IMG/VR virus record: IMGVR_UViG_2681813235_000001
Coordinates: 1 to 41,344 of that record
DNA from: a virus
Lineage: Duplodnaviria > Heunggongvirae > Uroviricota > Caudoviricetes
Length of the DNA stretch: 41,344 nucleotides
Reading direction: 5' to 3' (one strand)
The notes under the pieces are model-generated. The model did not search any database and was not told where the DNA came from. It worked only from the letters and a program-made list of their open reading frames with translations. Shown piece by piece: positions 2,314-17,104 of this stretch; positions within the stretch are counted from its first letter, which is position 1; the number at the start of each line of letters is the position of its first letter. A program made the translations under genes and the position numbers.

Positions 2314-2529
2314 TCATCGCTCCTTAAAGACGCCGTTTAACATGCCGATCGCCAGACTTAAATGAGTCGGTGTGAATCCCATCAGCGTTACCGTTTCGCG
2401 GTGCTTCTTCAGTACGCTACGGCAAATGTCATCGACGTTTTTATCCGGAAACTGCTGTCTGGCTTTTTTGATTTCAGAGTTAGCCAGACGGGCAATGCTG
2501 CGAAGGGCGTTTTCTTGCTGAGGTGTCAT
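2314..2529 (-). CDS. hypothetical protein (71 aa)
   Basis: ORF 2314-2625 trimmed to in-frame ATG at 2529 (MTPQQENALRS...); no family recognised. Confidence 0.4.
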   Translation of the reverse strand: MTPQQENALRSIARLANSEIKKARQQFPDKNVDDICRSVLKKHRETVTLMGFTPTHLSLAIGMLNGVFKER

Positions 2530-2605
2530 TGAACAAGTCCCATGTCGGCAAGCATAAGCACACAAAATATGAAGCCCGCTGCCAGAAAAATGCATTCCGT
2601 GGTTG

Positions 2606-2797
2606 TCATACCTGGTCTCTCTCATCTGCTTCTGCTTTCGCCACCATCATTTCCAGCTTTTGTGAAAGGGATGCGGCTAACGTATGAAATTCTTCGTCTG
2701 TTTCTACTGGTATTGGCACAAACCTGACTCCAATTTGAGCGAGGCTATGTGCCATCTCGATACTCGTTCTTAACTCAACAGGAGATGCTTTGTGCAT
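2606..2797 (-). CDS. hypothetical protein
   Basis: 63-aa ORF; start uncertain (alternative ATG at 2755); acidic C-terminus. Confidence 0.3.
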   Translation of the reverse strand: MHKASPVELRTSIEMAHSLAQIGVRFVPIPVETDEEFHTLAASLSQKLEMMVAKAEADERDQV

Positions 2798-2958
2798 ACA
2801 GCCCCTCGTTTATTATTTATCTCCTCAGCCAGCCGCTGTGCTTTCAGTGGATTTCGGATAACAGAAAGGCCGGGAAATACCCAGCCTCGCTTTGTAACGG
2901 AGTAGACGAAAGTAATCGCGCCTACCCGGATATTATCGTGAGGATGCGTCATCGCCAT
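2770..2958 (-). CDS. hypothetical protein downstream of exo
   Basis: 62-aa ORF whose start overlaps the exo stop (ATGGCGATGA); no family recognised. Confidence 0.4.
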
Positions 2959-3629
2959 TGCTCCCCAAATACAAAACCAATTTCAGCCAGTGCCTCGTCC
3001 ATTTTTTCGATGAACTCCGGCACCATCTCGTCAAAACTCGCTATGTACTTTTCATCCCGCTCAACCACGACATAATGCAGGCCTTCACGCTTCATACGCG
3101 GGTCATAGTTGGCAAAGTACCAGGCATCTTTTCGCGTCACCCACATGCTGTACTGCACCTGGGCCATGTAAGCCGACTTTATGGCCTCGAAACCACCGAG
3201 CCGGAACTTCATGAAATCCCGGGAGGTAAACGGGCATTTCAGCTCAAGACCATTGCCGTCACTGCATAAACCATCGGGAGAGCAGGCGGTGCGCATACTT
3301 TCGTCGCGATAGATGATCGGGGATTCAGTAACATTCACGCCGGAAGTGAATTCAAACAGGGTTCTGGCGTCGTTCTCGTACTGTTTTCCCCAGGCCAGCG
3401 CCTTAGCATTAACTTCCGGAGCCACACCGGTGCAAACCTCAGCCAGCAGGGTGTGGAAGTAGGACATTTTCATGTCAGGCCACTTCTTTCCGGAGCGGGG
3501 TTTTGCTATCACGTTGTGAACTTCTGAAGCGGTGATGACGCCGAGCCGTAATTTGTGCCACGCATCATCCCCTTGTTCGACAGCTCTCACATCGATCCCG
3601 GTACGCTGCAGGATAATGTCCGGTGTCAT
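2949..3629 (-). CDS. exo: lambda-type exonuclease (Red-alpha, YqaJ family)
   Basis: 226-aa translation matches my recollection of phage lambda Exo nearly residue-for-residue ([44 protein letters not shown]...). Confidence 0.95.
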
Positions 3630-7914: not shown

Positions 7915-8024
7915 AAGTTTTAATTTATACGCTTGCGTATTGATGGTCAAAACACGTTTTGCTATTGATTGGGTTAATACGCATTGCTATTATCCATTCA
8001 TTGTAATACCAATAGGAATTGATA
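7915..8024. promoter_or_regulatory. oR-like divergent promoter/operator region
   Basis: Intergenic between divergent repressor and Cro-like genes; contains TTGCTATTGATTG (7959-7971), TTGCTATTA (7984-7992) and palindrome CAAAAC-ac-GTTTTG (~7948-7961). Confidence 0.5.
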
Positions 8025-8252
8025 ATGACAAATCAAACCATTCAACTCGCAATCAGTATTACAGGTAGTCAAAAACGACTGGCAGATCTATGCGGTGTAG
8101 CCCAGCCCACTGTTTGGCGTTGGCTACACGGTGGCGGAATTGATGCCCGCTATGTAATGAAAATTGTCTCAGCCACTGGTGGAAAGATTAAACCAGCAGA
8201 TATTCGTCCCGACCTTGCACCATTGTTTAACGCGAGTAATTCTGCCGCCTAA
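8025..8252 (+). CDS. Cro-like HTH regulator
   Basis: 75 aa from ATG 8025 (AGGAA upstream); HTH QKRLADLCGVAQPTVWRW; first gene of the rightward operon. Confidence 0.7.
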   Translation: MTNQTIQLAISITGSQKRLADLCGVAQPTVWRWLHGGGIDARYVMKIVSATGGKIKPADIRPDLAPLFNASNSAA

Positions 8253-8282
8253 ACTGCGGCGTTAACTGATAAGGCAATGATT

Positions 8283-8822
8283 ATGCAACCACTTACATAC
8301 CAACAGACTAGCGGATTTAGCCCGACTGCGGTGATAAATCGTTCTCAAATAAAACAGGTGCCAGGCCACGAAAAAATCCGTGATGCCGTTCGCGCCTGGT
8401 CGGCTGCAGATAATCAGGATGTTGTTGCCGCACTCATTGTGAATGAGTATCGGGAGCAGGGCGGCGGCACCATCGATTTCCCTGATGATGTCAGCCGTGC
8501 ACGCCAGAAGCTGTTCCGCTTCCTCGATAACAAATTCGATTCTGAAAAATACCGAAATAACGTGCGTGAACTGACCCCGGCAATTCTGGCGGTACTACCG
8601 CTGGAATATCGCGGTTACCTGGTTGAGCAGGATAGCTTCATGACTCGGTTGGCTGAAATGGAAAAGGAACTCAGTGAGGCAAAACAGGCTGTCATTCTCA
8701 ACGCACCACGCCACCAGAAACTGAAGGAGATGAGTGAAGGCATTGTGTCGATGTTTCGTGTGGACCCGGACCTGGCTGGTCCATTGATGGCGATGGTCAC
8801 CACCATGCTGGGGGCAATATGA
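8283..8822 (+). CDS. YdaT-family protein (CII-position regulator)
   Basis: Shares EY-x-RQGGG and PAILA-x-LP blocks with my recollection of E. coli Rac YdaT; lies between Cro-like and O genes. Confidence 0.55.
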   Translation: MQPLTYQQTSGFSPTAVINRSQIKQVPGHEKIRDAVRAWSAADNQDVVAALIVNEYREQGGGTIDFPDDVSRARQKLFRFLDNKFDSEKYRNNVRELTPAILAVLPLEYRGYLVEQDSFMTRLAEMEKELSEAKQAVILNAPRHQKLKEMSEGIVSMFRVDPDLAGPLMAMVTTMLGAI

Positions 8823-8908
8823 CAGGTTCAGAAATGGCGAAAGCCGGTCTGCGCGAACAGAACCGACTTTCAGGTGCAAATCGTAACACACTCATTGCGG
8901 GAGGAATT

Positions 8909-9838
8909 ATGGCAAACACTGCTGAGATATTCAATTTTCCAGTGCCGGATGTGGCACAAAAGGAGCCGCGCGTGGCAGATCTCGATGATGGTTATACGCG
9001 CATTGCAAATGAGTTGCTGGAAGCTGTGATGCTGGCCGGATTAACACAGCACCAGCTTCTGGTCTTCCTGGCTGTCATGCGCAAAACATATGGCTTTAAT
9101 AAAAAACTGGATTGGGTGAGCAACGAGCAACTTTCCGAGTTGACCGGGATATTGCCGCACAAGTGTTCTGCTGCAAAAAGTGTTCTGGTAAAGCGTGGGA
9201 TTTTTATTCAGAGCGGGCGGAATATCGGCATTAATAATGTGGTCAGTGAATGGTCAACATTACCCGAATCAGGTAAGAAAAATAAAGTTTACCTGAAAGA
9301 GGTAAATTTACCTGAATCAGGTAAGAAAAGTTTACCCAAATCAGGTAAAGGCGTTTACCCGAATCAGGTAAACACAAAAGACAAACTAACAAAAGACAAT
9401 ATAAAACCTTTTTCGTCCGAGAATTCTGGCGAATCCTCTGACCAACCAGAAAACGATCTTCCTGTGGAGAAACCAGATGTTGCAATTCAGAGCGGCAGCA
9501 GGTGGGGGACAGCAGAAGACCTGACCGCCGCAGAGTGGATGTTTGACATGGTGAAGACCATCGCGCCATCAGCCAGAAAACCGAATTTTGCAGGGTGGGC
9601 TAACGATATCCGTCTGATGCGTGAACGTGATGGACGTAACCACCGCGACATGTGTGTACTGTTCCGCTGGGCCTGCCAGGACAACTTCTGGTCCGGTAAC
9701 GTGCTGAGTCCGGCCAAACTCCGCGACAAGTGGACCCAGCTCGAAATCAACCGGAACAAGCAACAGGCTGGCGTGACAGTCGGCAAACCAAAACTCGACC
9801 TGACAAACACTGACTGGATTTACGGGGTGGATCTATGA
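8909..9838 (+). CDS. O: replication initiator O (lambda O family)
   Basis: From ATG 8909 (GGGAGG upstream): MANTAEIFNF...VADLDDGY...RKTYGFNK parallels lambda O N-terminus; iterons inside the gene; stop/start overlap with P. Confidence 0.85.
   Translation: MANTAEIFNFPVPDVAQKEPRVADLDDGYTRIANELLEAVMLAGLTQHQLLVFLAVMRKTYGFNKKLDWVSNEQLSELTGILPHKCSAAKSVLVKRGIFIQSGRNIGINNVVSEWSTLPESGKKNKVYLKEVNLPESGKKSLPKSGKGVYPNQVNTKDKLTKDNIKPFSSENSGESSDQPENDLPVEKPDVAIQSGSRWGTAEDLTAAEWMFDMVKTIAPSARKPNFAGWANDIRLMRERDGRNHRDMCVLFRWACQDNFWSGNVLSPAKLRDKWTQLEINRNKQQAGVTVGKPKLDLTNTDWIYGVDL
9260..9373. repeat. ori iterons (about 5 copies of TTTACC(C/T)(G/A)AATCAGGTAA) with A-rich flank
   Basis: Copies at ~9260-9277, 9288-9306 (variant), 9307-9325, 9331-9350, 9354-9373, followed by A-rich tract 9374-9415; located inside O as in ori-lambda. 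Confidence 0.7.
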
Positions 9839-10536
9839 AAAACATCGCCGCACAGATGGTTAACTTTGACCGTGAGCAGATGCGTCGGATCGCCAACAAC
9901 ATGCCGGAACAGTACGACGAAAAGCCACAGGTACAGCAGGTAGCGCAGATCATCAACGGTGTGTTCAGCCAGTTACTGGCAACTTTCCCGGCGAGCCTGG
10001 CTAACCGTGACCAGAATGAACTGAACGAAATCCGCCGCCAGTGGGTGCTGGCTTTTCGGGAAAACGGGATCACCACAATGGAACAGGTTAACGCTGGAAT
10101 GCGCGTAGCCCGTCGGCAGAATCGACCATTCCTGCCATCACCCGGGCAGTTTGTCGCCTGGTGCCGGGAAGAAGCATCCGTTAACGCCGGGCTGCCAAAC
10201 GCCAGCGAGCTGGTTGATATGGTTTACGAGTATTGCCGGAAGCGTGGCCTTTATCCGGATGCAGAGTCTTATCCATGGAAATCAAACGCGCACTACTGGT
10301 TGGTTACCAACCTGTATCAGAACATGCGGGCCAATGCGCTTACTGATGCGGAATTACGGCGCAAGGCTGCCGATGAACTGACCTGTATGACCACGCGAAT
10401 TAACCGTGGTGAGACGATACCTGAACCAGTAAAACAACTTCCTGTCATGGGCGGTAGACCTCTAAATCGTGCACAGGCTCTGGCGAAGATCGCAGAAATC
10501 AAAGCGAAGTTTGGGCTGAAAGGAGACAGAGCATGA
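9835..10536 (+). CDS. P: replication protein P (DnaB helicase loader)
   Basis: 233-aa translation matches lambda P from memory almost throughout (MKNIAAQMVNFDREQMRRIANNMPEQYDEKPQVQQVAQIINGVFSQLLATFPASLANRDQNE...). Confidence 0.95.
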   Translation: MKNIAAQMVNFDREQMRRIANNMPEQYDEKPQVQQVAQIINGVFSQLLATFPASLANRDQNELNEIRRQWVLAFRENGITTMEQVNAGMRVARRQNRPFLPSPGQFVAWCREEASVNAGLPNASELVDMVYEYCRKRGLYPDAESYPWKSNAHYWLVTNLYQNMRANALTDAELRRKAADELTCMTTRINRGETIPEPVKQLPVMGGRPLNRAQALAKIAEIKAKFGLKGDRA

Positions 10537-10792
10537 GTGAGCAATACTGGTTTTTGTGTGCAAAATTGGGCTAGAAGGAAATATCAATCGACGCAGAAAT
10601 AATTAAGTTATTTTTTTAATAGAACTGAGCTTGAAGATATGATTTTGCAGGGATACTTACGCTGTGAGCAGTCGAAGACATTGCAACATGCAAGTGATTC
10701 TCAATATTCATAGATGACAAAACATAATGCGAAGATGTAACATATTAATTTCTATGATTTGAAATGTCTAAGTTGTAAAAAGGAAAACTATA

Positions 10793-11050
10793 ATGTATGT
10801 AGATATTTATAAAAGTGATATTTGTAATTCTAAGTATCTTGTTGTCCCAGCGAATACAGTGGTTACAGGAAATGCCCTCGGGGTGAGTGATCCTGACTTC
10901 TCGAAATTTTCAATTATCAAAAAAAGTGAGTTGTTAGAACCTGGGATGATAGGTATCAATGACGTAAGAGCTAAAAGCGATATCAATTCTATTGGATATC
11001 ATATTTTAAGAGTGAGAACTTCTTTTCAAGAAGACACAACTAAAAATTAA
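10793..11050 (+). CDS. hypothetical protein in AT-rich island (weakly YcgL-domain-like)
   Basis: 85-aa ORF with AAAAGGA 8 nt upstream; visibly AT-rich island 10540-11080; weak resemblance MYVDIYKS...SKYLVV to YcgL (M-x-VIYRS...YLYV). Confidence 0.35.
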   Translation: MYVDIYKSDICNSKYLVVPANTVVTGNALGVSDPDFSKFSIIKKSELLEPGMIGINDVRAKSDINSIGYHILRVRTSFQEDTTKN

Positions 11051-11086
11051 TTTTTGATTTTTTTAGAATCAACCTTTCATAATCAT

Positions 11087-11205
11087 GTCATCGGAGCCTG
11101 AACAACTCCGATGACTTCTGCGCTAAACGGGGACGTTTATGCGCACATACAATCCAAATTATCTTCTCCCTTCACAGATGTAGAAATGCACCTGCGGTTT
11201 TTTAT
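11087..11205. repeat. direct repeat copy 1 (hairpin plus ~90-bp conserved segment)
   Basis: Hairpin GTCATCGGAG-(9 nt)-CTCCGATGAC at 11087-11115, then segment near-identical to 13427-13516. Confidence 0.75.
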
Positions 11206-11270
11206 ATTCGGTGTTTGGCCTCGGCAGTATAGAGCTGGGAATCTCTGTTCGTCTGGCGGCTAAAGGCGAT

Positions 11271-11360
11271 ATGGAAATCGTGATGTCTTGGCCTAAAGTA
11301 GTTGCAACAGTTGTAGCAGCTATGGCTGTGATCATCATGGTGTCCATTTACTGGGGTTGA
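11271..11360 (+). CDS. possible small hydrophobic peptide (29 aa)
   Basis: Hand-translated: MEIVMSWPKVVATVVAAMAVIIMVSIYWG; single predicted TM helix; weak SD (AAGG, 4-nt spacing); antisense ORF 11159-11347 also open, so strand is ambiguous. Confidence 0.25.
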   Translation: MEIVMSWPKVVATVVAAMAVIIMVSIYWG

Positions 11361-11448
11361 CGATATGATTTATCTGGGGATATATTCTTACGCGTTGCCG
11401 CAAAATCGGCACACGGGATTGGCGTCCCGGAATACTACTCAACGCATG

Positions 11449-11469
11449 CCGCGTTAAGCGGTTTTTTTA
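11449..11469 (+). terminator. weak candidate intrinsic terminator
   Basis: CCGC-GTTAA-GCGG followed by TTTTTTT; stem only 4-5 bp. Confidence 0.3.
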
Positions 11470-11624
11470 TGCGCTAAGCACGGCTACGTCCAAATTATGG
11501 TGGGCTGTGTGAGGGCTTCTTCGGGAGCGCCGGGTTTGAGTAGCCGGTTACGCCAACCTTGCACAGTTCACCACCAGTCGATTGGCGTCGTTGGTGGTGA
11601 TGGTTAACCTGATGAGGTGATACT

Positions 11625-12230
11625 ATGACTACTCAATTAGCATTCCACAAAACGACGTTTACCCCGATTTGCCACAATAACAGAATTTGGCTTACTGCCA
11701 CTGAAGTTGGTTTAGCTCTGGAATATGCGGACGATAAAGCAGTTCAGCGTATTTACTCTCGTCACTCAGATGAATTTACAGATATGATGACAAGGGTGGT
11801 CAAAGTGACCACCCCTCGTGGAATGCAGGAGTCTCGAGTATTTAGCCTTCGCGGAGCCCATCTGATCGCCATGTTTGCTCGTACTCCTGTGGCCAAAGAA
11901 TTCCGCCGCTGGGTGCTGGATATTCTCGATCGAGAAATTCAACAATCCCCAATCACAAAACAATTCACTGATAACGAACTTTGCACACTTGCTTGGTTAT
12001 GGCGGGCAAGTGACACAATGTTAACCGCTTGCCAAAACGTCACTCCGCTTCTTCAGGTAGCAGAACACCGCGAAGCCGGTCGCTTCACTTCAATCGAACA
12101 AGAATATCCCCGGATACTCAATAAGGCACAGGCAATCCTTGCCAGAGAAACGGCACATGTAAAATTCCGGCCGTGGCAGGATGATAAGTGGAGTCGAGTA
12201 TTGACGCATTTACGTTCTGAACGGCTGTAA
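11625..12230 (+). CDS. Bro-N domain protein (putative antirepressor-like)
   Basis: N-terminal region (ICHNNRIWLTATEVGLALEY ... RVFSLRGAHLIAMFARTPVAKEFRRWVLDIL) fits the Bro-N pattern from memory; GAGGTG SD. Confidence 0.55.
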   Translation: MTTQLAFHKTTFTPICHNNRIWLTATEVGLALEYADDKAVQRIYSRHSDEFTDMMTRVVKVTTPRGMQESRVFSLRGAHLIAMFARTPVAKEFRRWVLDILDREIQQSPITKQFTDNELCTLAWLWRASDTMLTACQNVTPLLQVAEHREAGRFTSIEQEYPRILNKAQAILARETAHVKFRPWQDDKWSRVLTHLRSERL

Positions 12231-12529
12231 TAAAGTTGCGGGAGAGAAATGCCGCTAGTATTTTGTAATTAATTGAATTCTGACGGTTTAATGAGAAGTC
12301 AAGAACACTACTTGTACTATAATCGTTCGATGTTAGTGAGGGTTTGATGCAAAAAATGAAGTGATTGACCCTAAATTTGCGCGATCAGCGACAGATTGTA
12401 CACCGAGATCCTGTGGGCTGGAATTTGCAGAGAAATACCGAAAATGATATCCAATATTGTTTTCAGTTCCTACATCATACCTGATAAGGGTATAATCATA
12501 AAAATCAGGATAATTCAAGTTATAATTGT

Positions 12530-12946
12530 ATGAATAAAAACGACCTTGAAGCATTATCTGACACTAGGCTTAATGAGGCCAAATGCTTGCTTGATCATGG
12601 CTTTTTTCATGGTGCATATTATCTTTGTGGGTATGCAGTTGAATGTGCATTGAAGGCCTGTATTGCCAAGTCATTTTTACAACATGAGTTTCCAAACAAA
12701 AAAGTCGTAAATGATTCATATACTCATGATTTGTCGCAACTTCTCAAAATTGCCAACTTACATCAAATTTTGATTGCTGACGCAAAAAATGATGTTTCGT
12801 TGGAGATTAACTGGTCGGTCGTTAAAGACTGGAGCGAGCAATTTAGATACGACAATAACATAAGTAAAGCTATGGCCGAACAATTGTTTGATGCTGTAGG
12901 TGACCAAAATTCTGGAGTTTTGAAATGGGTAAAAGCACACTGGTAA
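12530..12946 (+). CDS. HEPN-domain protein
   Basis: 138 aa; central block GAYYLCGYAVECALKACIAKS ... THDLSQLLKIA matches classic HEPN helices; no clear R-x(4-6)-H motif seen; AT-rich. Confidence 0.55.
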   Translation: MNKNDLEALSDTRLNEAKCLLDHGFFHGAYYLCGYAVECALKACIAKSFLQHEFPNKKVVNDSYTHDLSQLLKIANLHQILIADAKNDVSLEINWSVVKDWSEQFRYDNNISKAMAEQLFDAVGDQNSGVLKWVKAHW

Positions 12947-13326
12947 TCGGCAGAGAGTTGACAAAAGATATGGAATTCTCAGGTCAATTTTTGTTAAAAA
13001 AACTCAAGTTACAGAATTTAACTATTGATGCTGCAATGTGGTTTTATTACCCAGATCTATCTTGGAGATATATTTTAGTTATCAGTGACTTCTCAGAACG
13101 TGGACCGGCAGAAATATATAGAAAAATCAGTGAGATAAATAGAAATAGCATATCAAAAAAGTATAAGCCGATACCATTAGAAGCAATTGAGGCTAAGGGG
13201 GATTCAGCTTTTATTTATAAAATGTTAAAAGGATTTGCTAGAGTCAACGATGGTAAAGTTCGCGTTTCTAATTCTATGGTAAATGGTTTAGAAATCGTTG
13301 ACTGTCTGATCTATGAGTTAAAATAA
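12925..13326 (+). CDS. hypothetical protein, overlapping partner of the HEPN gene
   Basis: 133-aa ORF; start overlaps HEPN 3' end by 22 nt with GGAG upstream; no nucleotidyltransferase GS...DxD motif found; AT-rich. Confidence 0.45.
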   Translation: MGKSTLVIGRELTKDMEFSGQFLLKKLKLQNLTIDAAMWFYYPDLSWRYILVISDFSERGPAEIYRKISEINRNSISKKYKPIPLEAIEAKGDSAFIYKMLKGFARVNDGKVRVSNSMVNGLEIVDCLIYELK

Positions 13327-13397
13327 GAAATCTCTTGCTGGGTATCATTATTGTTTAAATGACTTTTGATTTTCAATAATCAACTTGTCATAATTAA

Positions 13398-13516
13398 GTC
13401 ACCGGAGTTTGAACTCCTCCGGTGACTTCTGCGCTAAACGGGGACGTTTATGCGCACATACAATCCAAACTCTCTTCTCCCTTCACAGATGCAGAAATGC
13501 ACCTGCAATTCTTTGC
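13398..13516. repeat. direct repeat copy 2 (hairpin plus ~90-bp conserved segment)
   Basis: Hairpin GTCACCGGAG-(9 nt)-CTCCGGTGAC at 13398-13426, then segment near-identical to 11116-11205; immediately upstream of ninB. Confidence 0.75.
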
Positions 13517-13547
13517 ATCTAGCGTTTGACCTCTGCGGAGGTGAAGC

Positions 13548-14003
13548 GTGAACCTCCCACAAGACGGCATCAAATTACATCGCGGCAACTTCACCGCTAT
13601 CGGTCAGCAGATCCAGCCTTATCTGGAGGAAGGCAAATGCTTTCGCATGGTGCTTAAACCGTGGCGCGAGAGACGCAGTCTTTCCCAGAATGCACTCAGC
13701 CACATGTGGTACAGCGAAATCAGTGAATACCTCATCAGCAGGGGTAAAACGTTCGCCACTCCAGCTTGGGTAAAAGATGCTCTCAAACACACATATCTCG
13801 GTTATGAAACCAAAGACCTGGTTGATGTCGTAACCGGTGATATCACCACTATCCAGTCGTTACGCCATACCTCCGATCTTGATACCGGAGAGATGTATGT
13901 CTTCCTGTGTAAGGTTGAAGCCTGGGCGATGAATATTGGTTGCCATCTGACTATTCCGCAGAGCTGCGAGTTCCAGCAGCTCCGCGACAAGCAGGAGGCG
14001 TAA
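13548..14003 (+). CDS. ninB: NinB-family recombination protein
   Basis: GTG start with GGAGG 6 nt upstream; R-S-L-S-Q-N-x(5)-W block resembles the NinB signature region; nin-region position. Confidence 0.55.
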
Positions 14004-14173
14004 TGGCTACACCGCTTATTCGTGTCATGAACGGACACATCTACAGAGTACCAAATCGTCGTAAGCGTAAACCTGAGCTGAAGCCATCCGAAATACCAAC
14101 ACTGCTCGGGTATACCGCCAGCCTGGTTGATAAAAAATGGTTGCGACTGGCAGCAAGGAGGAATCATGGCTGA
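14003..14173 (+). CDS. hypothetical small protein (56 aa)
   Basis: ATG overlaps ninB stop (TAATG); AGGAGG upstream; basic protein [23 protein letters not shown]... Confidence 0.4.
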   Translation: MATPLIRVMNGHIYRVPNRRKRKPELKPSEIPTLLGYTASLVDKKWLRLAARRNHG

Positions 14174-14456
14174 TTTGAGAAAAGCAGCGCGTAGTCGGGA
14201 ATGCCAGGTAAGAATCCCTGGCGTATGTAATGGCAACCCTGAAACGTCTGTACTGGCACATATCCGGCTGACTGGATTGTGCGGCACCGGTACCAAACCG
14301 CCAGACCTGATTGCCACCATTGCATGTTCTGCCTGCCACGACGAAATCGACCGCCGCACGCATTTTGTTGACGCTGGATATGCAAAAGAATGCGCGCTGG
14401 AAGGTATGGCGAGAACGCAGGTTATCTGGCTGAAAGAGGGGGTAATTAAGGCGTGA
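14166..14456 (+). CDS. ybcO: YbcO-like DUF1364 protein (putative Zn-binding nuclease)
   Basis: From ATG 14166 (AGGAGG upstream): [34 protein letters not shown]...[11 protein letters not shown], matching DLP12 YbcO from memory. Confidence 0.6.
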
Positions 14457-14815
14457 ATACTTACCACATCACACTACCCTGGCCGCCGAGCAATAACCGC
14501 TACTACCGCCATAATCGCGGGCGCACACACATCAGCGCAGAAGGGCAGGCATACCGCGATAACGTCACCCGAATCATTAAAAACGCAATGCTGGATATCG
14601 GCCTGGCTATGCCAGTGAAAATCCGTATTGAGTGCCACATGCCGGATCGCCGTCGCCGTGACCTGGATAATCTGCAAAAAGCCGCTTTTGACGCACTCAC
14701 CAAAGCAGGTTTCTGGCTGGATGATGCTCAGGTCGTTGATTACCGCGTTGTGAAGATGCCAGTTACCAAAGGTGGGAGGCTGGAACTGACCATCACCGAA
14801 ATGGGGAATGAATGA
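14453..14815 (+). CDS. rusA: RusA Holliday-junction resolvase
   Basis: 120-aa translation matches E. coli DLP12 RusA from memory ([25 protein letters not shown]...). Confidence 0.9.
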
Positions 14816-14952
14816 TGTTTGAGTTTTATATGGCAGAACTTCTTCGCCACCGCTGGGGGCATCTGCGCTTATATCGTTTCCCCGGTTCTGTTTTGACCGA
14901 TTACCGAATACTGAAGAATTACGCCAAAACCCTGAAAGGAGCTGCCGCATGA
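14812..14952 (+). CDS. ylcG: YlcG-like small protein (46 aa, not in ORF track)
   Basis: Hand-translated: [46 protein letters not shown]; overlaps rusA stop and Q-like start. Confidence 0.55.
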
Positions 14953-15638
14953 ATACCCAATATTTACAGTATGTCCGCGAGCAACTCATTGTGGCTACCG
15001 CTGATTTGAGCGGAGCAACGAAAGGCCAGCTTGAAGCCTGGCTGGAGCATGCACAATTTGATACTGGTACATACAAACGAAAGAAGCGACGCATTCTGGA
15101 TGAGGTAACTGGCAAGATTATTATGCTGGATAATCCGCCGATTTCCGGTAAACAGTCGTACGCAAAAGGTTCATCTGTCGCCCTGATCAGTCCGGTCGAG
15201 TTTTCAACCTCTTCATGGCGCCGCGCTGTTCTGTCTCTCGATGAGCATCAGAAAGCATGGTTGCTGTGGAGTTACAGTGAAAATATTCGCTGGGAGCATC
15301 AGGTTGCCATAACGCAGTGGGCATGGAGCGAGTTTAAGACTCTGTTGGGTACCAGAAAAATTGCAGGTAAGACACTGGAACGCCTGAAGAAGTTGATCTG
15401 GCTGGCGGCACAGGATGTGAAGAGCGAACTGGCAGGGCGTGAGGCTTATGAATACCAGGAACTGGCGTCACTGGTGGGAGTGACATCAAAAAACTGGTCT
15501 GAGACATTCACTGAACGCTGGGTTGCAATGAAGCACATTTTTCTACAGCTTGATAGCGAAGCTTTATTGCTTCTAACGAGAACACGTTCAAAACAAAAGG
15601 CGACATTTTCACAGCAAAATATTGCAAAACTGGATTAA
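14949..15638 (+). CDS. putative late-gene antiterminator (Q-like)
   Basis: 229-aa ORF in the canonical Q position between nin genes and the lysis cassette; not lambda Q by sequence; assignment is positional. Confidence 0.5.
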   Translation: MNTQYLQYVREQLIVATADLSGATKGQLEAWLEHAQFDTGTYKRKKRRILDEVTGKIIMLDNPPISGKQSYAKGSSVALISPVEFSTSSWRRAVLSLDEHQKAWLLWSYSENIRWEHQVAITQWAWSEFKTLLGTRKIAGKTLERLKKLIWLAAQDVKSELAGREAYEYQELASLVGVTSKNWSETFTERWVAMKHIFLQLDSEALLLLTRTRSKQKATFSQQNIAKLD

Positions 15639-15639
15639 A

Positions 15640-15848
15640 AAGCATATATTTCATATAAATCTGATATTTTGCCAATGTTGTACGCACTGGCAGTAATCCA
15701 AATTCAAGCTCGAGGTTTAAAGCCTTGGGCTTTTCTGTTTCTGGGCGGTGAGTATCCTTTCAACGTACCCCAGCCAGGGTGTCTTCAGCTGTTGAGTTGA
15801 TATTGCTTAACCCTCTGTTGCCAGCTACATGCTGGCTTTTTTATTCCA
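15640..15848 (+). promoter_or_regulatory. putative late promoter/qut region with short leader
   Basis: Between Q-like gene and holin; candidate -35 TTGCCA at 15669-15674; hairpin plus T-tract at ~15720-15745 and at 15821-15848. Confidence 0.35.
15821..15848 (+). terminator. Rho-independent terminator (tR'-like)
   Basis: GCCAGC-TACAT-GCTGGC followed by TTTTTTATT. Confidence 0.55.
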
Positions 15849-15959
15849 GGCTTGCGGGGAGCATCAACTCCGTGCTTTGTCGTTAAATTACCCCGTGAGT
15901 CTGATTTCTGACATTTAACGTCCCGGCCTTTTGTCGGCGGCGAAACATTGGCTATTCAT

Positions 15960-16265
15960 ATGCACGAAAAAGAGAGCCTTGCCGGAGCGTTCTGGCTCGT
16001 TTTGCTGATCATCGCAGGTTGGGGCGGTCTGGTCCGCTACCTGATAGATGTGAAGCAGAGTAAAGCAACGTGGAGTTGGATAAATGCTCTGGCTCAGATA
16101 GTGGTATCAGGATTCACCGGTGTTATTGGTGGCCTGATCAGCATCGAAAGTGGATTCAGTATTTACATGATTCTCGCGACAGCGGGGATTAGTGGTGCGA
16201 TGGGTTCGGTTGCACTGACGTACTTCTGGGAACGACTGACAGGGGTGAAAAATGCAAAATCTTAA
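15960..16265 (+). CDS. holin (three predicted TM helices)
   Basis: ORF 15948-16265 starts with TTG; first ATG at 15960; three hydrophobic segments; immediately upstream of, and overlapping, the endolysin. Confidence 0.65.
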   Translation: MHEKESLAGAFWLVLLIIAGWGGLVRYLIDVKQSKATWSWINALAQIVVSGFTGVIGGLISIESGFSIYMILATAGISGAMGSVALTYFWERLTGVKNAKS

Positions 16266-16728
16266 TCCTCAGCGTAAAGCTTTCCTCGATATGGTGGCAT
16301 GGTCAGAAGGAACGGATAACGGACGGCAGAAAACCAGAAATCATGGTTATGACGTCATTGTAGGCGGAGAGCTATTTACTGATTACTCCGATCACCCTCG
16401 CAAACTTGTCACGCTAAACCCAAAACTCAAATCAACAGCCGCCGGACGTTACCAGCTTCTTTCCCGTTGGTGGGATGCCTACCGTAAGCAGCTTGGCCTG
16501 AAAGACTTCTCTCCAAAAAGCCAGGACGCTGTGGCATTGCAGCAGATTAAGGAGCGTGGCGCTTTACCGATGATTGATCGCGGTGATATCCGTCAGGCTA
16601 TCGATCGTTGCAGCAATATCTGGGCGTCGTTACCTGGTGCAGGTTACGGTCAGTATGAACATAAAATCGGTGACCTGATTTCCCGGTTTAAAGAGGCTGG
16701 TGGGGTGGTAAATGAAGTTGAGCTATAA
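16252..16728 (+). CDS. R: endolysin, lambda R-type lytic transglycosylase
   Basis: 158-aa translation matches lambda R from memory (NQRKAFLDM.AWSEGTDNGRQKTRNHGYDVIVGGELFTDYSDHPRKLVTLNPKLKST...). Confidence 0.9.
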   Translation: MQNLNPQRKAFLDMVAWSEGTDNGRQKTRNHGYDVIVGGELFTDYSDHPRKLVTLNPKLKSTAAGRYQLLSRWWDAYRKQLGLKDFSPKSQDAVALQQIKERGALPMIDRGDIRQAIDRCSNIWASLPGAGYGQYEHKIGDLISRFKEAGGVVNEVEL

Positions 16729-17104
16729 GCTGGTTATCGCTGCATTCTTCTTTACTGTCATCGGTTCTTTCATCTGGTCTGCCAACCACTACTACAGCAA
16801 ATATCAGCACGAAAAGAAACGTGCTGATGAGGCTGTACAAAATGTTGAATCTGCAACAGCCATTACCCGTAACGTCCTGCAATCACTGCAAATCGTCAAT
16901 ACAGTTATAGAGGTTAACCAGCATGCAAAACAGCAGATCGCACTGGAGTCACAGAGAACCCAGGAAGATATCAAAGTGGCTGTTGCGGATGATGATTGTG
17001 CTTCACGTCCTGTGCCTGCTGCCGCTGCTGACCGGTTGCGGAAATTCGCGAACGGTTTACGTGAGCGCTCCGGTGGCACCACTGCCAGCCAGCCTGACTT
17101 CTGA
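16712..17104 (+). CDS. Rz: Rz-like i-spanin
   Basis: N-terminal TM helix then coiled-coil-like periplasmic region; overlaps endolysin 3' end. Confidence 0.65.
   Translation: MKLSYKLVIAAFFFTVIGSFIWSANHYYSKYQHEKKRADEAVQNVESATAITRNVLQSLQIVNTVIEVNQHAKQQIALESQRTQEDIKVAVADDDCASRPVPAAAADRLRKFANGLRERSGGTTASQPDF

Follow-up and report, generated by a model that had tools for sequence, protein, structure and literature searches.

Direct repeats around a cargo interval in a lambdoid phage are probably copies of a structured leader that precedes ninB

In phage lambda, the intrinsic terminator tR2 separates ren from ninB, and N-modified polymerase reads through it. The terminator is a canonical hairpin, GGCCUGC/GCAGGCC followed by UUUUUAUUU (DNA TTTTTATTT). 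Other close precedents are the leader open reading frames (ORFs) of the mdtU-mdtJI, speFL and mok-hok types, in which the stop codon of a short ORF overlaps the downstream start, and the boundary or linker sequences and morons of lambdoid phages, the latter being reportedly promoter-gene-terminator units in the account of Juhala et al., writing in 2000 and cited in PMC4104026. Here, we describe an element related to these systems, the ylcH leader unit, which is present twice in a stretch of 41,344 nt from a tailed phage (Caudoviricetes; IMG/VR record IMGVR_UViG_2681813235_000001; the whole stretch is hereafter the window). An earlier reading of the letters alone, here called the original prediction, had pointed to direct repeats with hairpins on either side of a cargo module and proposed that they form a structured RNA or terminator-promoter unit that also provided the homology for inserting the cargo. 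The analysis presented below suggests that the repeats (copy A, upstream; copy B, downstream) are copies of the control region that precedes the ninB/ybcN-rusA-Q operon in a large lambdoid phage group and that they contain the small gene ylcH/orf33, an identification that we consider probable. The original prediction is thereby partly supported: its structured RNA, placed at a transcript boundary where lambda has tR2, largely holds, whereas an origin of the repeats as insertion arms does not.

The first hairpin of copy B (HP1) lies immediately 5' of ninB, as expected from the earlier placement of this repeat at the tR2 site, and like tR2 it marks the right edge of the variable ren-ninB interval; moreover, an RNA 3' end has been mapped at its homologue in Escherichia coli K-12 (see below). 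However, HP1 has no sequence similarity to tR2, and lambda lacks the promoter-like element, ylcH and the hairpins HP2 and HP4 that accompany HP1 in the window. In agreement with this, a covariance model of the unit did not find it in lambda, whose 76-nt ren-ninB spacer carries tR2 instead, whereas the K-12 unit scores 103 bits with the same model.

A repeat search finds one direct-repeat family here, 11059-11225 and 13370-13536 (167 nt, 84% identity), for which local blastn gives the limits 11052-11225 and 13364-13536 (83.9% over 174 nt); within the core, 11106-11195 against 13417-13506, the aligned copies differ at 5 positions only. This similarity is far beyond chance. In copy A, HP1 (11087-11115) consists of the arm GTCATCGGAG, the loop CCTGAACAA and the arm CTCCGATGAC, and in copy B (13398-13426) of GTCACCGGAG, TTTGAACTC and CTCCGGTGAC. 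Both are perfect 10-bp stems (-15.1 and -17.0 kcal/mol for A and B, respectively). At the fifth pair, copy A has U-A where copy B has C-G, and 4 of the 9 loop positions are different. Repeat search, alignment and folding thus confirm the near-identical repeats, the compensated pair and the differing loops that had been reported from the sequence. The repeat had been taken to begin at the hairpin; it is real, but its start lies ~35 nt further upstream and takes in a promoter-like element. Likewise, its content is structured, as proposed, but had not been recognized as a truncated (A) or complete (B) copy of a small annotated gene, ylcH/orf33.

The unit has been annotated, although hardly studied, in several phages. 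GenBank entry X92588 of phage 82 (orf33, orf151, orf56, orf96, rus, orf45, Q) matches copy B at 87% identity, and its annotation of this stretch comprises a putative -35, a putative -10, a 'possible regulator-binding site' (an inverted repeat), a ribosome binding site and orf33, followed by orf151, which is ninB. In the E. coli K-12 prophage DLP12 the unit comes directly after ybcM, and orf33 there is ylcH (b4588, 33 codons), overlapping ybcN; in phi80, the HP1 arms carry the annotation IR4. In all single-copy phages that were opened (82, phi80, HK639, CobraSix, KO-TP1 and K-12 DLP12) the unit is immediately 5' of ninB. It occurs in 2962 of 5426 complete E. coli genomes (~55%), and the 153 fetched loci that contain it have one copy in 143 cases and two in 10. 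When loci were instead anchored on NinB, 60 of the 78 with enough upstream sequence fit the strict pattern, and 17 of the other 18 were judged by eye to be variant units (77 of 78 in total), one being without the 5' part. Phages of different immunity and different Q type have the unit in common, and matches of a pattern scan of genome contigs outside Enterobacteriaceae are mostly chance.

A cmscan of positions 8000-17000 against Rfam release 15 (E <= 1) returns no match at either repeat; apart from a chance match to rliD, it finds only C4, isrK and c4-a1b1, all within the cargo. Known small RNAs (sRNAs) and regulators of prophages were considered as identities of the unit and rejected: the anti-sRNAs AgvB and AsxR are encoded downstream of PR' and not at the unit, the locus is absent from the paper on Pas sRNAs, and HusR (YnfL) binds near rusA. 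Literature searches with the whole word 'ylcH' and with sequence strings returned no functional study and no RNA structure, covariation, coupling or 3' end tied to the element. Thus, as far as searched, the element has been annotated since 1996 only as putative features, and its multi-hairpin leader-ORF architecture and covariation are undescribed in that literature.

Diverse copies show no similarity upstream of the -35 element and a fixed order downstream of it in two alignments. From 5' to 3', the unit reads TTGAT(T), 8 nt, ATCAAC, 4-5 nt, CATAAT, 3-4 nt, HP1, UUCU and HP2, followed by a linker rich in C and poor in G (12 C but 0 G in 30 nt), the almost invariant CACAGAUGCAGAAAUGCACCUGCGAUUUUCUGCAU (the HP3 region) and HP4, which is predicted to pair the ninB Shine-Dalgarno sequence. 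The sigma-70-like promoter TTGATT-N17/18-CATAAT, with 9 of 12 consensus matches, has a spacer of 17 nt in most copies and 18 nt in copy A. In copy B it occupies 13366-13394 on the + strand, as do all features given here, and was found by a scan as well as being the putative -35/-10 of X92588; in copy A (11054-11083), it was recognized by a consensus scan and by the conserved TTGAT, ATCAA and CATAAT, with the ATCAAC block in its spacer. The hexamers are at least 90% conserved in variable flanks, and in NinB-anchored loci the -10 retains the form nATAAT. A palindrome, TTGAT-N8-ATCAA(C), overlaps the -35 and the spacer (11054-11072 and 13366-13383) and is conserved in homologues; its ATCAAC block is fixed relative to the -10, copy A having N9 through one extra T. 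An FNR or IHF site at TTGAT-N8-ATCAA was rejected, since neither the spacing nor the TTR element fits those consensus sequences.

Downstream of the promoter of copy B, HP1 (loop UUUGAACUC) is assigned from its fold and from Term-seq on the K-12 homologue, and HP2 (13431-13455), which encloses the ylcH start region, from fold and covariation. The leader ORF ylcH/orf33 (13450-13551, 33 codons; ORF list and annotation) ends in a TGA that overlaps the ninB GTG (GTGA). HP4 (13522-13549) pairs the ninB Shine-Dalgarno GGAGG (13537-13541) and part of the GTG (13548-13550) in the minimum-free-energy fold. The next gene is ninB/ybcN itself (13548-14003), which according to Pfam and homology encodes an Orf-family recombination mediator and is the gene normally found 3' of the unit. 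Copy A has the same parts in its 5' half: HP1 with a 10-bp stem and the loop CCUGAACAA (fold and covariation) and HP2 (11120-11144), GCGCUAAACG-GGGA-CGUUUAUGCGC, with GGGGA in the loop and the AUG (11139) of a ylcH remnant in the 3' arm (fold and five pairing versions). The remnant, ylcH' (11139-11183), is identified by sequence comparison as a pseudogene of 14 codons followed by TAG where homologues have CAG. It runs into an HP3 region (11175-11194), CAGAUGUA-GAAA-UGCACCUG, which in the model alignment is nearly invariant and has a weakly supported fold.

The RNA of copy B folds far better than expected: 13395-13560 reaches -64.2 kcal/mol (z = -6.95 against dinucleotide shuffles) in a structure that contains HP1, HP2 and HP4 and in which the ylcH Shine-Dalgarno GGGGA lies in the 4-nt loop of HP2 and the ylcH AUG in its 3' arm. 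The fold of copy A is less distinctive (z = -2.6). The structured RNA claimed by the original prediction, and the covariance analysis that it had suggested, both find support, as a + strand structure is conserved by covariation across 68 homologues. A covariance model was built on 15 ungapped seeds and used to align 68 distinct copies, in place of a pair count in fixed register, which was confounded by variants with an 11-bp stem. In this alignment, standard pairs occupy 97.7% of cells and double-sided changes occur at 17 of 27 pairs, the observed values being reached by 0 of 500 shuffles, while pairing drops to 18-36% when partners are shifted by 1-3 columns. Covarying pairs number 8 of 10 in HP1, 7 of 10 in HP2 and 2 of 7 in HP3, and RNAalifold gives the same three helices on the 68-copy alignment. 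An alternative helix for the HP3 region, HP3b (AUGCAGAAA/UUUCUGCAU), is 91.7% paired, but its covariation is no better than that of shuffles (339 of 500).

The helices of HP1 and HP2 have been exchanged rather than merely edited. HP1 stems are swapped wholesale with pairing kept (GUCGCAGUCGG/CCGAUUGUGAC, UCUGCCAGCGG/CCCUGGCAGA, UCCGUCAGCGG/CCCUGACGGA and GUUGCGUCCGG/CCGGGCGUGAC), and the HP2 helix persists in at least five sequence versions (UAAACG/CGUUUA, AUUUAAG/CUUAAAU, UUUGAG/CUCAAA, AUUUGAUG/CAUUAAAU and AUAUGAUU/AAUUAUAU). These compensatory changes indicate that the helices are maintained by selection and that the unit is not a neutral linker. The pair that first drew attention to HP1, the fifth, is a classic covarying pair with a wobble intermediate: U.G in 36, C-G in 25 and U-A in 7 of the 68 homologues. 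The same counts bear on whether HP1 is instead a DNA palindrome bound by a dimeric regulator, as annotated in phage 82, which would make it an operator over the ninB promoter start. The inverted repeat does begin 4 nt past the -10 hexamer, a position from which an operator would block initiation, and the second conserved palindrome lies over the -35 and spacer. However, half-site symmetry is lost (T.G at pair 5 in 36 of 68), the stems are replaced with pairing kept (GTCGCAGTCGG/CCGATTGTGAC and TCTGCCAGCGG/CCCTGGCAGA) and the loop alone is conserved, which is the opposite of an operator, and phages of different immunity and Q type share the unit. Additionally, the inner HP1 pairs contain ~60 cells of G.U type as opposed to ~8 other mismatches, an excess that fits a + strand RNA and speaks against both a DNA palindrome bound by protein and an RNA from the minus strand. 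Wobble and mismatch counts were used for this strand call because folding energies are uninformative, the reverse complement of HP1 being about equally stable (mean -14.4 vs -13.5 kcal/mol). Taken with this evidence, an operator at HP1 seems very unlikely.

While the stems vary, the HP1 loop motif YUGAAC is conserved, also in the NinB-anchored sample. The loop, U-GAACA-A, resembles the U-GAAAA-A loop of the lambda nut site (boxA + boxB). In such a site, boxA precedes a 5-bp stem that closes a GNRNA pentaloop, and recognition is specific to the N protein of the phage concerned. HP1 was nevertheless rejected as an N-utilisation site, for no contiguous 5-bp stem closes the loop, there is no boxA (CGCUCUU), and the hairpin is conserved across phages that differ in their antitermination systems, HK639 and phi80 among them.

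Published data place an RNA 3' end at HP1, the kind of evidence to which the original prediction had looked for a transcript boundary. Under two growth conditions, Term-seq of MG1655 (Adams et al., 2021, eLife; PMC7815308, supplementary files 1 and 3) reports 3' ends on the + strand at 572349 and 572350, which lie after ...GGUGACUUCU, are given with the context ...GTCACCGGAGCCTGAACAACTCCGGTGACTTCT|G and are labelled "upstream ORF -19 ylcH, -117 ybcN". Mapped onto the K-12 homologue of the unit (locus L321), as distinct from the window itself, these ends fall 5-6 nt past the HP1 stem, and the tables contain no further curated 3' end in 572351-572479 (PMC7815308). Since an exonuclease arriving from downstream should halt first at HP4, HP3 or HP2, an end made at HP1 is favoured. 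In line with a leader that blocks expression, rusA, located downstream in DLP12, requires an inserted promoter to be expressed (PMC4118853).

The same data have a bearing on a further possibility, namely that the local promoter is central and HP1 is either a 5'-terminal stem-loop that stabilizes the ylcH-ninB mRNA or a ~30-nt hairpin RNA whose loop acts in trans. The filter of Adams et al. retains such a 3' end only with a differential RNA-seq (dRNA-seq) start 21-200 nt upstream (PMC7815308), and the promoter-predicted start is ~29-31 nt upstream of the K-12 end. The -35 and -10 are conserved with a 17-nt spacer, and the start predicted 6-8 nt past CATAAT corresponds to stem positions 3-5, the outer three pairs being the least kept (12, 6 and 3 unpaired cells). 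The conservation of YUGAAC even in the NinB-anchored sample points in the same direction, and in locus L235 promoter, HP1 and HP2 are found on a different ORF, as would be the case for a portable expression cassette. On the other hand, the outer pairs are compensated in phi80-type variants, which implies that the full stem is transcribed, i.e., from upstream, and a target for the loop within the window is no better than chance (17 matches to YTGAACA vs 13.3 expected). We therefore regard a 5'-terminal or trans-acting HP1 as unlikely, though to be kept in mind.

The second half of the unit is organized around ylcH. The frame has 31-33 codons in 147 of 152 distinct units, and ~146 end in ATGA or GTGA, overlapping the next start, an arrangement shared with mdtU-mdtJI, speFL and mok-hok. 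As in those systems, the downstream Shine-Dalgarno sequence is predicted to be paired within the leader ORF and the leader start lies in a hairpin, and the C-rich linker could load Rho; in contrast to them, the ylcH peptide is largely dictated by RNA elements, the coupling is deduced from sequence, and no sensing signal is known. There are three sequence versions of ylcH, between which the frame is preserved through a 3-nt length difference, and their N-terminal thirds are wholly different (two being MRPQSELLTL and VQTTIRTPFN). The nucleotide motif ACAAUC is nonetheless kept across the versions in all three codon phases, indicating that conservation acts at the RNA level. Similarly, rare variants that change QKC to LIG, LNG, PIG or LSG keep the HP3 pairing, and the C-terminal residues are set by the ninB Shine-Dalgarno sequence (GGEA from GGAGGUGAAGCG, KEAV from AAGGAGGCCGUA). 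The ylcH peptide thus looks like a by-product of RNA elements. It is conceivable that the repeats are paralogous small protein genes kept for their peptide, with incidental hairpins: the ORF is intact in 147 of 152 units and the stretch SQMQKCTC(D/N)(F/S)LH is widely conserved. However, besides the dissimilar N-terminal thirds, the motif kept in three frames, the QKC variants and the dictated C-terminus, copy A has a stop codon in its ylcH in the window and there is no Pfam family for ylcH, and we find this explanation highly improbable. Another frame is open in both copies (MTSALNG..., with an ATG/GTG inside the HP1 3' arm and two synonymous A/B differences), but it was discarded as it has an in-frame TAA in the second version. 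The predicted anti-Shine-Dalgarno/Shine-Dalgarno pairing at ninB takes three sequence types among homologues. On the whole, sequence considerations make it probable that ylcH is a leader ORF to whose translation that of ninB is coupled.

Within this probable scheme, HP1 would be the counterpart of tR2, stopping non-antiterminated transcripts, whether of cargo origin or started at the unit's own promoter, before they reach the nin genes and Q. Transcripts that extend past HP1 would be translationally closed, so that ninB would be read only by ribosomes that have opened HP2, read ylcH and unfolded HP4, and if ylcH were left untranslated the C-rich linker would be free to load Rho.

Several observations weigh against this scheme. 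The proposal of a terminator-promoter unit holds for the promoter-like element, which is conserved upstream of HP1, but HP1 is no canonical terminator: it lacks a U-tract, its tail being UUCUGCGC (3 U in 8), and a terminator scan does not flag it. Its d score in a d'Aubenton-Carafa-type calculation is -20 to -28, as opposed to +17.5 for lambda tR2, and its tail score is 2.2 against 4.06. The stem is G+C-rich and stable (10 bp, -14.5 to -17.1 kcal/mol), and the 9-nt loop is larger than usual for a terminator. The mapped 3' end could reflect processing or an exonuclease stop rather than termination, and the Term-seq signal is weak (~1600-1900 reads) and derives from a defective prophage in uninduced cells. 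Regarding the structure, the covariation alignment was fitted to the model, and most of the aligned sequences were gathered with a pattern that fixes CATAAT, TGAAC and TTCTGCGC and leaves the stems free. The ninB Shine-Dalgarno is paired in 55 of 59 sequences, a result that does not beat its shuffled control (477 of 590). Finally, an insulator does not explain why a conserved promoter stands directly upstream of a transcript-ending hairpin, and it gives no role to the loop motif YUGAAC and the ATCAAC spacer block.

The conserved promoter, the YUGAAC loop, the ATCAAC block and the missing U-tract leave room for a factor-dependent attenuator. The HP1 apical motif (C)CUGAACA(A) might in that case be recognized in trans, by an RNA-binding protein of the host or phage or by a kissing RNA, and promoter and HP1 together might act as a conditional attenuator that gates non-N transcription into nin and Q; we regard this as a distinctly speculative and rather doubtful extension.

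Copy A differs from copy B in its history and surroundings. Besides the TAG at codon 15 of ylcH', whose equivalent ORF in ETEC1720 is an incomplete pseudogene in RefSeq, all A copies carry the 3' signature TTCGGTGTTT, which B copies lack, and a 29-aa hydrophobic ORF, MEIVMSWPKVVATVVAAMAVIIMVSIYWG (11271-11360; ORF list), follows copy A in 9 of 9 two-copy loci of this type, being intact in 7 of the 9. This signature and the fixed link to the ORF suggest that copy A is an old paralogue tied to it. Among 5426 complete E. coli genomes, 304 have copy A with the hydrophobic ORF, and the promoter and HP1 of copy A are degenerate or truncated in five relatives (L002, L208, L004, L145 and L003). The hydrophobic ORF has a good Shine-Dalgarno sequence and a variant C-terminus (...VVVVIIAPPICKG), is broken by TAG in L002 and L208, and places its stop codon inside the -35 of the next promoter. 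It has no Pfam family and might encode either a small membrane protein or a peptide resembling type I toxins.

Three separable pieces lie between the copies: the rest of copy A with the hydrophobic ORF, a C4/Bro-N module and a HEPN pair. The C4/Bro-N module begins with its own promoter, TTGACG-N18-TATATT (11357-11386; promoter scan), whose -35 is the left boundary of the module, followed by isrK/c4-a1b1 target hairpins (11382-11468; above the Rfam gathering score), the C4 antisense RNA (11493-11578; Rfam 72.7 bits, gathering score 45) and an antirepressor-like protein with Bro-N and P22_AR_C domains (11625-12230; Pfam). We take this layout to be that of P1 immI and of the Gifsy-1 isrK locus. 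A version of the module that is 70-78% identical is found near ninE in ~250 phage records, mostly of Shiga toxin (Stx) phages. The second module consists of a HEPN protein (12530-12946; Pfam HEPN and a weak PADLOC match to PDC-M28A, E = 1.8e-7) and a 133-aa partner from the ORF list (12925-13326) that overlaps the HEPN gene by 22 nt and has no family match; the two may be a two-gene defence or toxin-antitoxin pair. Upstream of copy A lies an AT-rich ORF of 85 aa (orf85, 10793-11050) that has no Pfam or PADLOC match and whose DNA has no match of at least 85% identity in the 5426 complete E. coli genomes, which suggests that the window may come from a host other than a typical E. coli.

The origin of this arrangement is where the evidence departs from the original prediction, which took the two copies for homology arms that inserted this cargo, a single copy marking the empty site. 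As that idea would have it, the single copy is the common state, and in every phage compared the right boundary of the variable interval coincides with the unit's -35 element. Phage recombinases accept diverged homology of such length (De Paepe et al., 2014; PMC3945230), and there are loci in which the unit has recombined. In L225, a direct repeat of 629 nt with 98.6% identity (1-629 vs 2464-3092) runs from the contig start to a right end inside the unit, within ylcH, and is the product expected of a recent unequal crossover within the unit. L197 (6817-11106) has an independent two-copy layout in which a 32-codon ninB fragment and then ~3.8 kb of other cargo separate the two units; a reading frame with a GNAVPP motif (C5 methyltransferase-like) is part of that cargo. 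In L235 (4816-5103), promoter, HP1 and HP2 are fused at the AUG to an unrelated 74-aa two-transmembrane-like ORF, MRIKKKSLFFRLFVSLLLCVF..., which replaces ylcH-ninB.

Nevertheless, the unit belongs to ninB as its resident 5' control region and is present once in 143 of 153 loci, and copy A is no recent duplicate of copy B: the two are 84% identical with a diverged 3' third, and A copies share their own signature and always precede the hydrophobic ORF. Every submodule has its own boundary, and the cargo is found beside single units without copy A (L210, L135, L155, L162, L126 and L227). The isrK/C4/Bro-N module occurs without an upstream copy in at least six loci, i.e., the same gene order without repeats, and in L210 it directly follows ren, the homology to the window beginning at the module's own -35 element; the HEPN pair stands beside a single unit in L162, L126 and L227. 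The comparison with an empty site that the original prediction had called for found no exact empty-site relative among the 5426 complete E. coli genomes, where a synthetic A/B junction query had no match covering at least 80%. The sole empty-site-like case is a distant one, L232, in which a 46%-identical orf85 homologue is followed by a single unit and ninB. An insertion scar such as a target-site duplication or an att-type site was rejected, the repeats being ~170 nt long and only 84% identical, copy A being an old lineage and no recombinase lying between the copies; neither the ORFs nor the Pfam matches there include an integrase or transposase. All this makes an origin as insertion arms improbable in our view. 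What can be retained of the homology role is narrower: the copies were neither created by nor needed for cargo insertion, but the unit recombines at times, as L225 and L197 illustrate, and two copies that are 84% identical over ~170 nt can recombine to duplicate or delete the DNA between them without having arisen as insertion arms.

The reading that we prefer for the window is one in which an older, partly decayed copy A would head a separate 310-bp submodule encoding the small hydrophobic peptide, and this submodule, the C4/Bro-N module and the HEPN pair would have been stacked by mosaic recombination in the variable P/ren-ninB interval. The distance from P to the unit ranges from 934 to 9465 bp among the loci, and the interval holds emrE, ylcJ, ybcK, ybcL and ybcM in K-12 and PD-lambda-1 in PhiR26_1; these varied contents and distances point to a general cargo hotspot that the unit delimits on the right. 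In sharply separating unrelated cargo from the conserved nin genes, in being fused to three different downstream genes and in having a crossover inside it, the unit is similar to the boundary sequences and morons of lambdoid phages. It differs from the short boundary sequences in being a much longer, structured control region under selection.

Collectively, the element is a leader with covariation support, multiple hairpins, an upstream ORF and an in vivo transcript end in K-12 that is absent from Rfam yet present in ~55% of complete E. coli genomes. Were the attenuator reading true, it would be a new class of cis-regulatory RNA in about half of E. coli genomes, and one portable among genes (ninB, the small hydrophobic ORF and the membrane ORF of L235). 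In lambdoid prophages, the stretch from the replication genes to ninB is a major hotspot for cargo and defence, which in this and related loci holds emrE, ybcL/M, PD-lambda-1, HEPN pairs and antirepressor modules. If the leader model is true, the element at its right edge sets whether cargo transcription leaks into the recombination genes and the late activator Q. The model would thus bear on how prophages insulate lethal late genes from moron expression, on the silence of rusA and ybcN in DLP12, and on how a control region can double as a recombination hotspot for cargo exchange.

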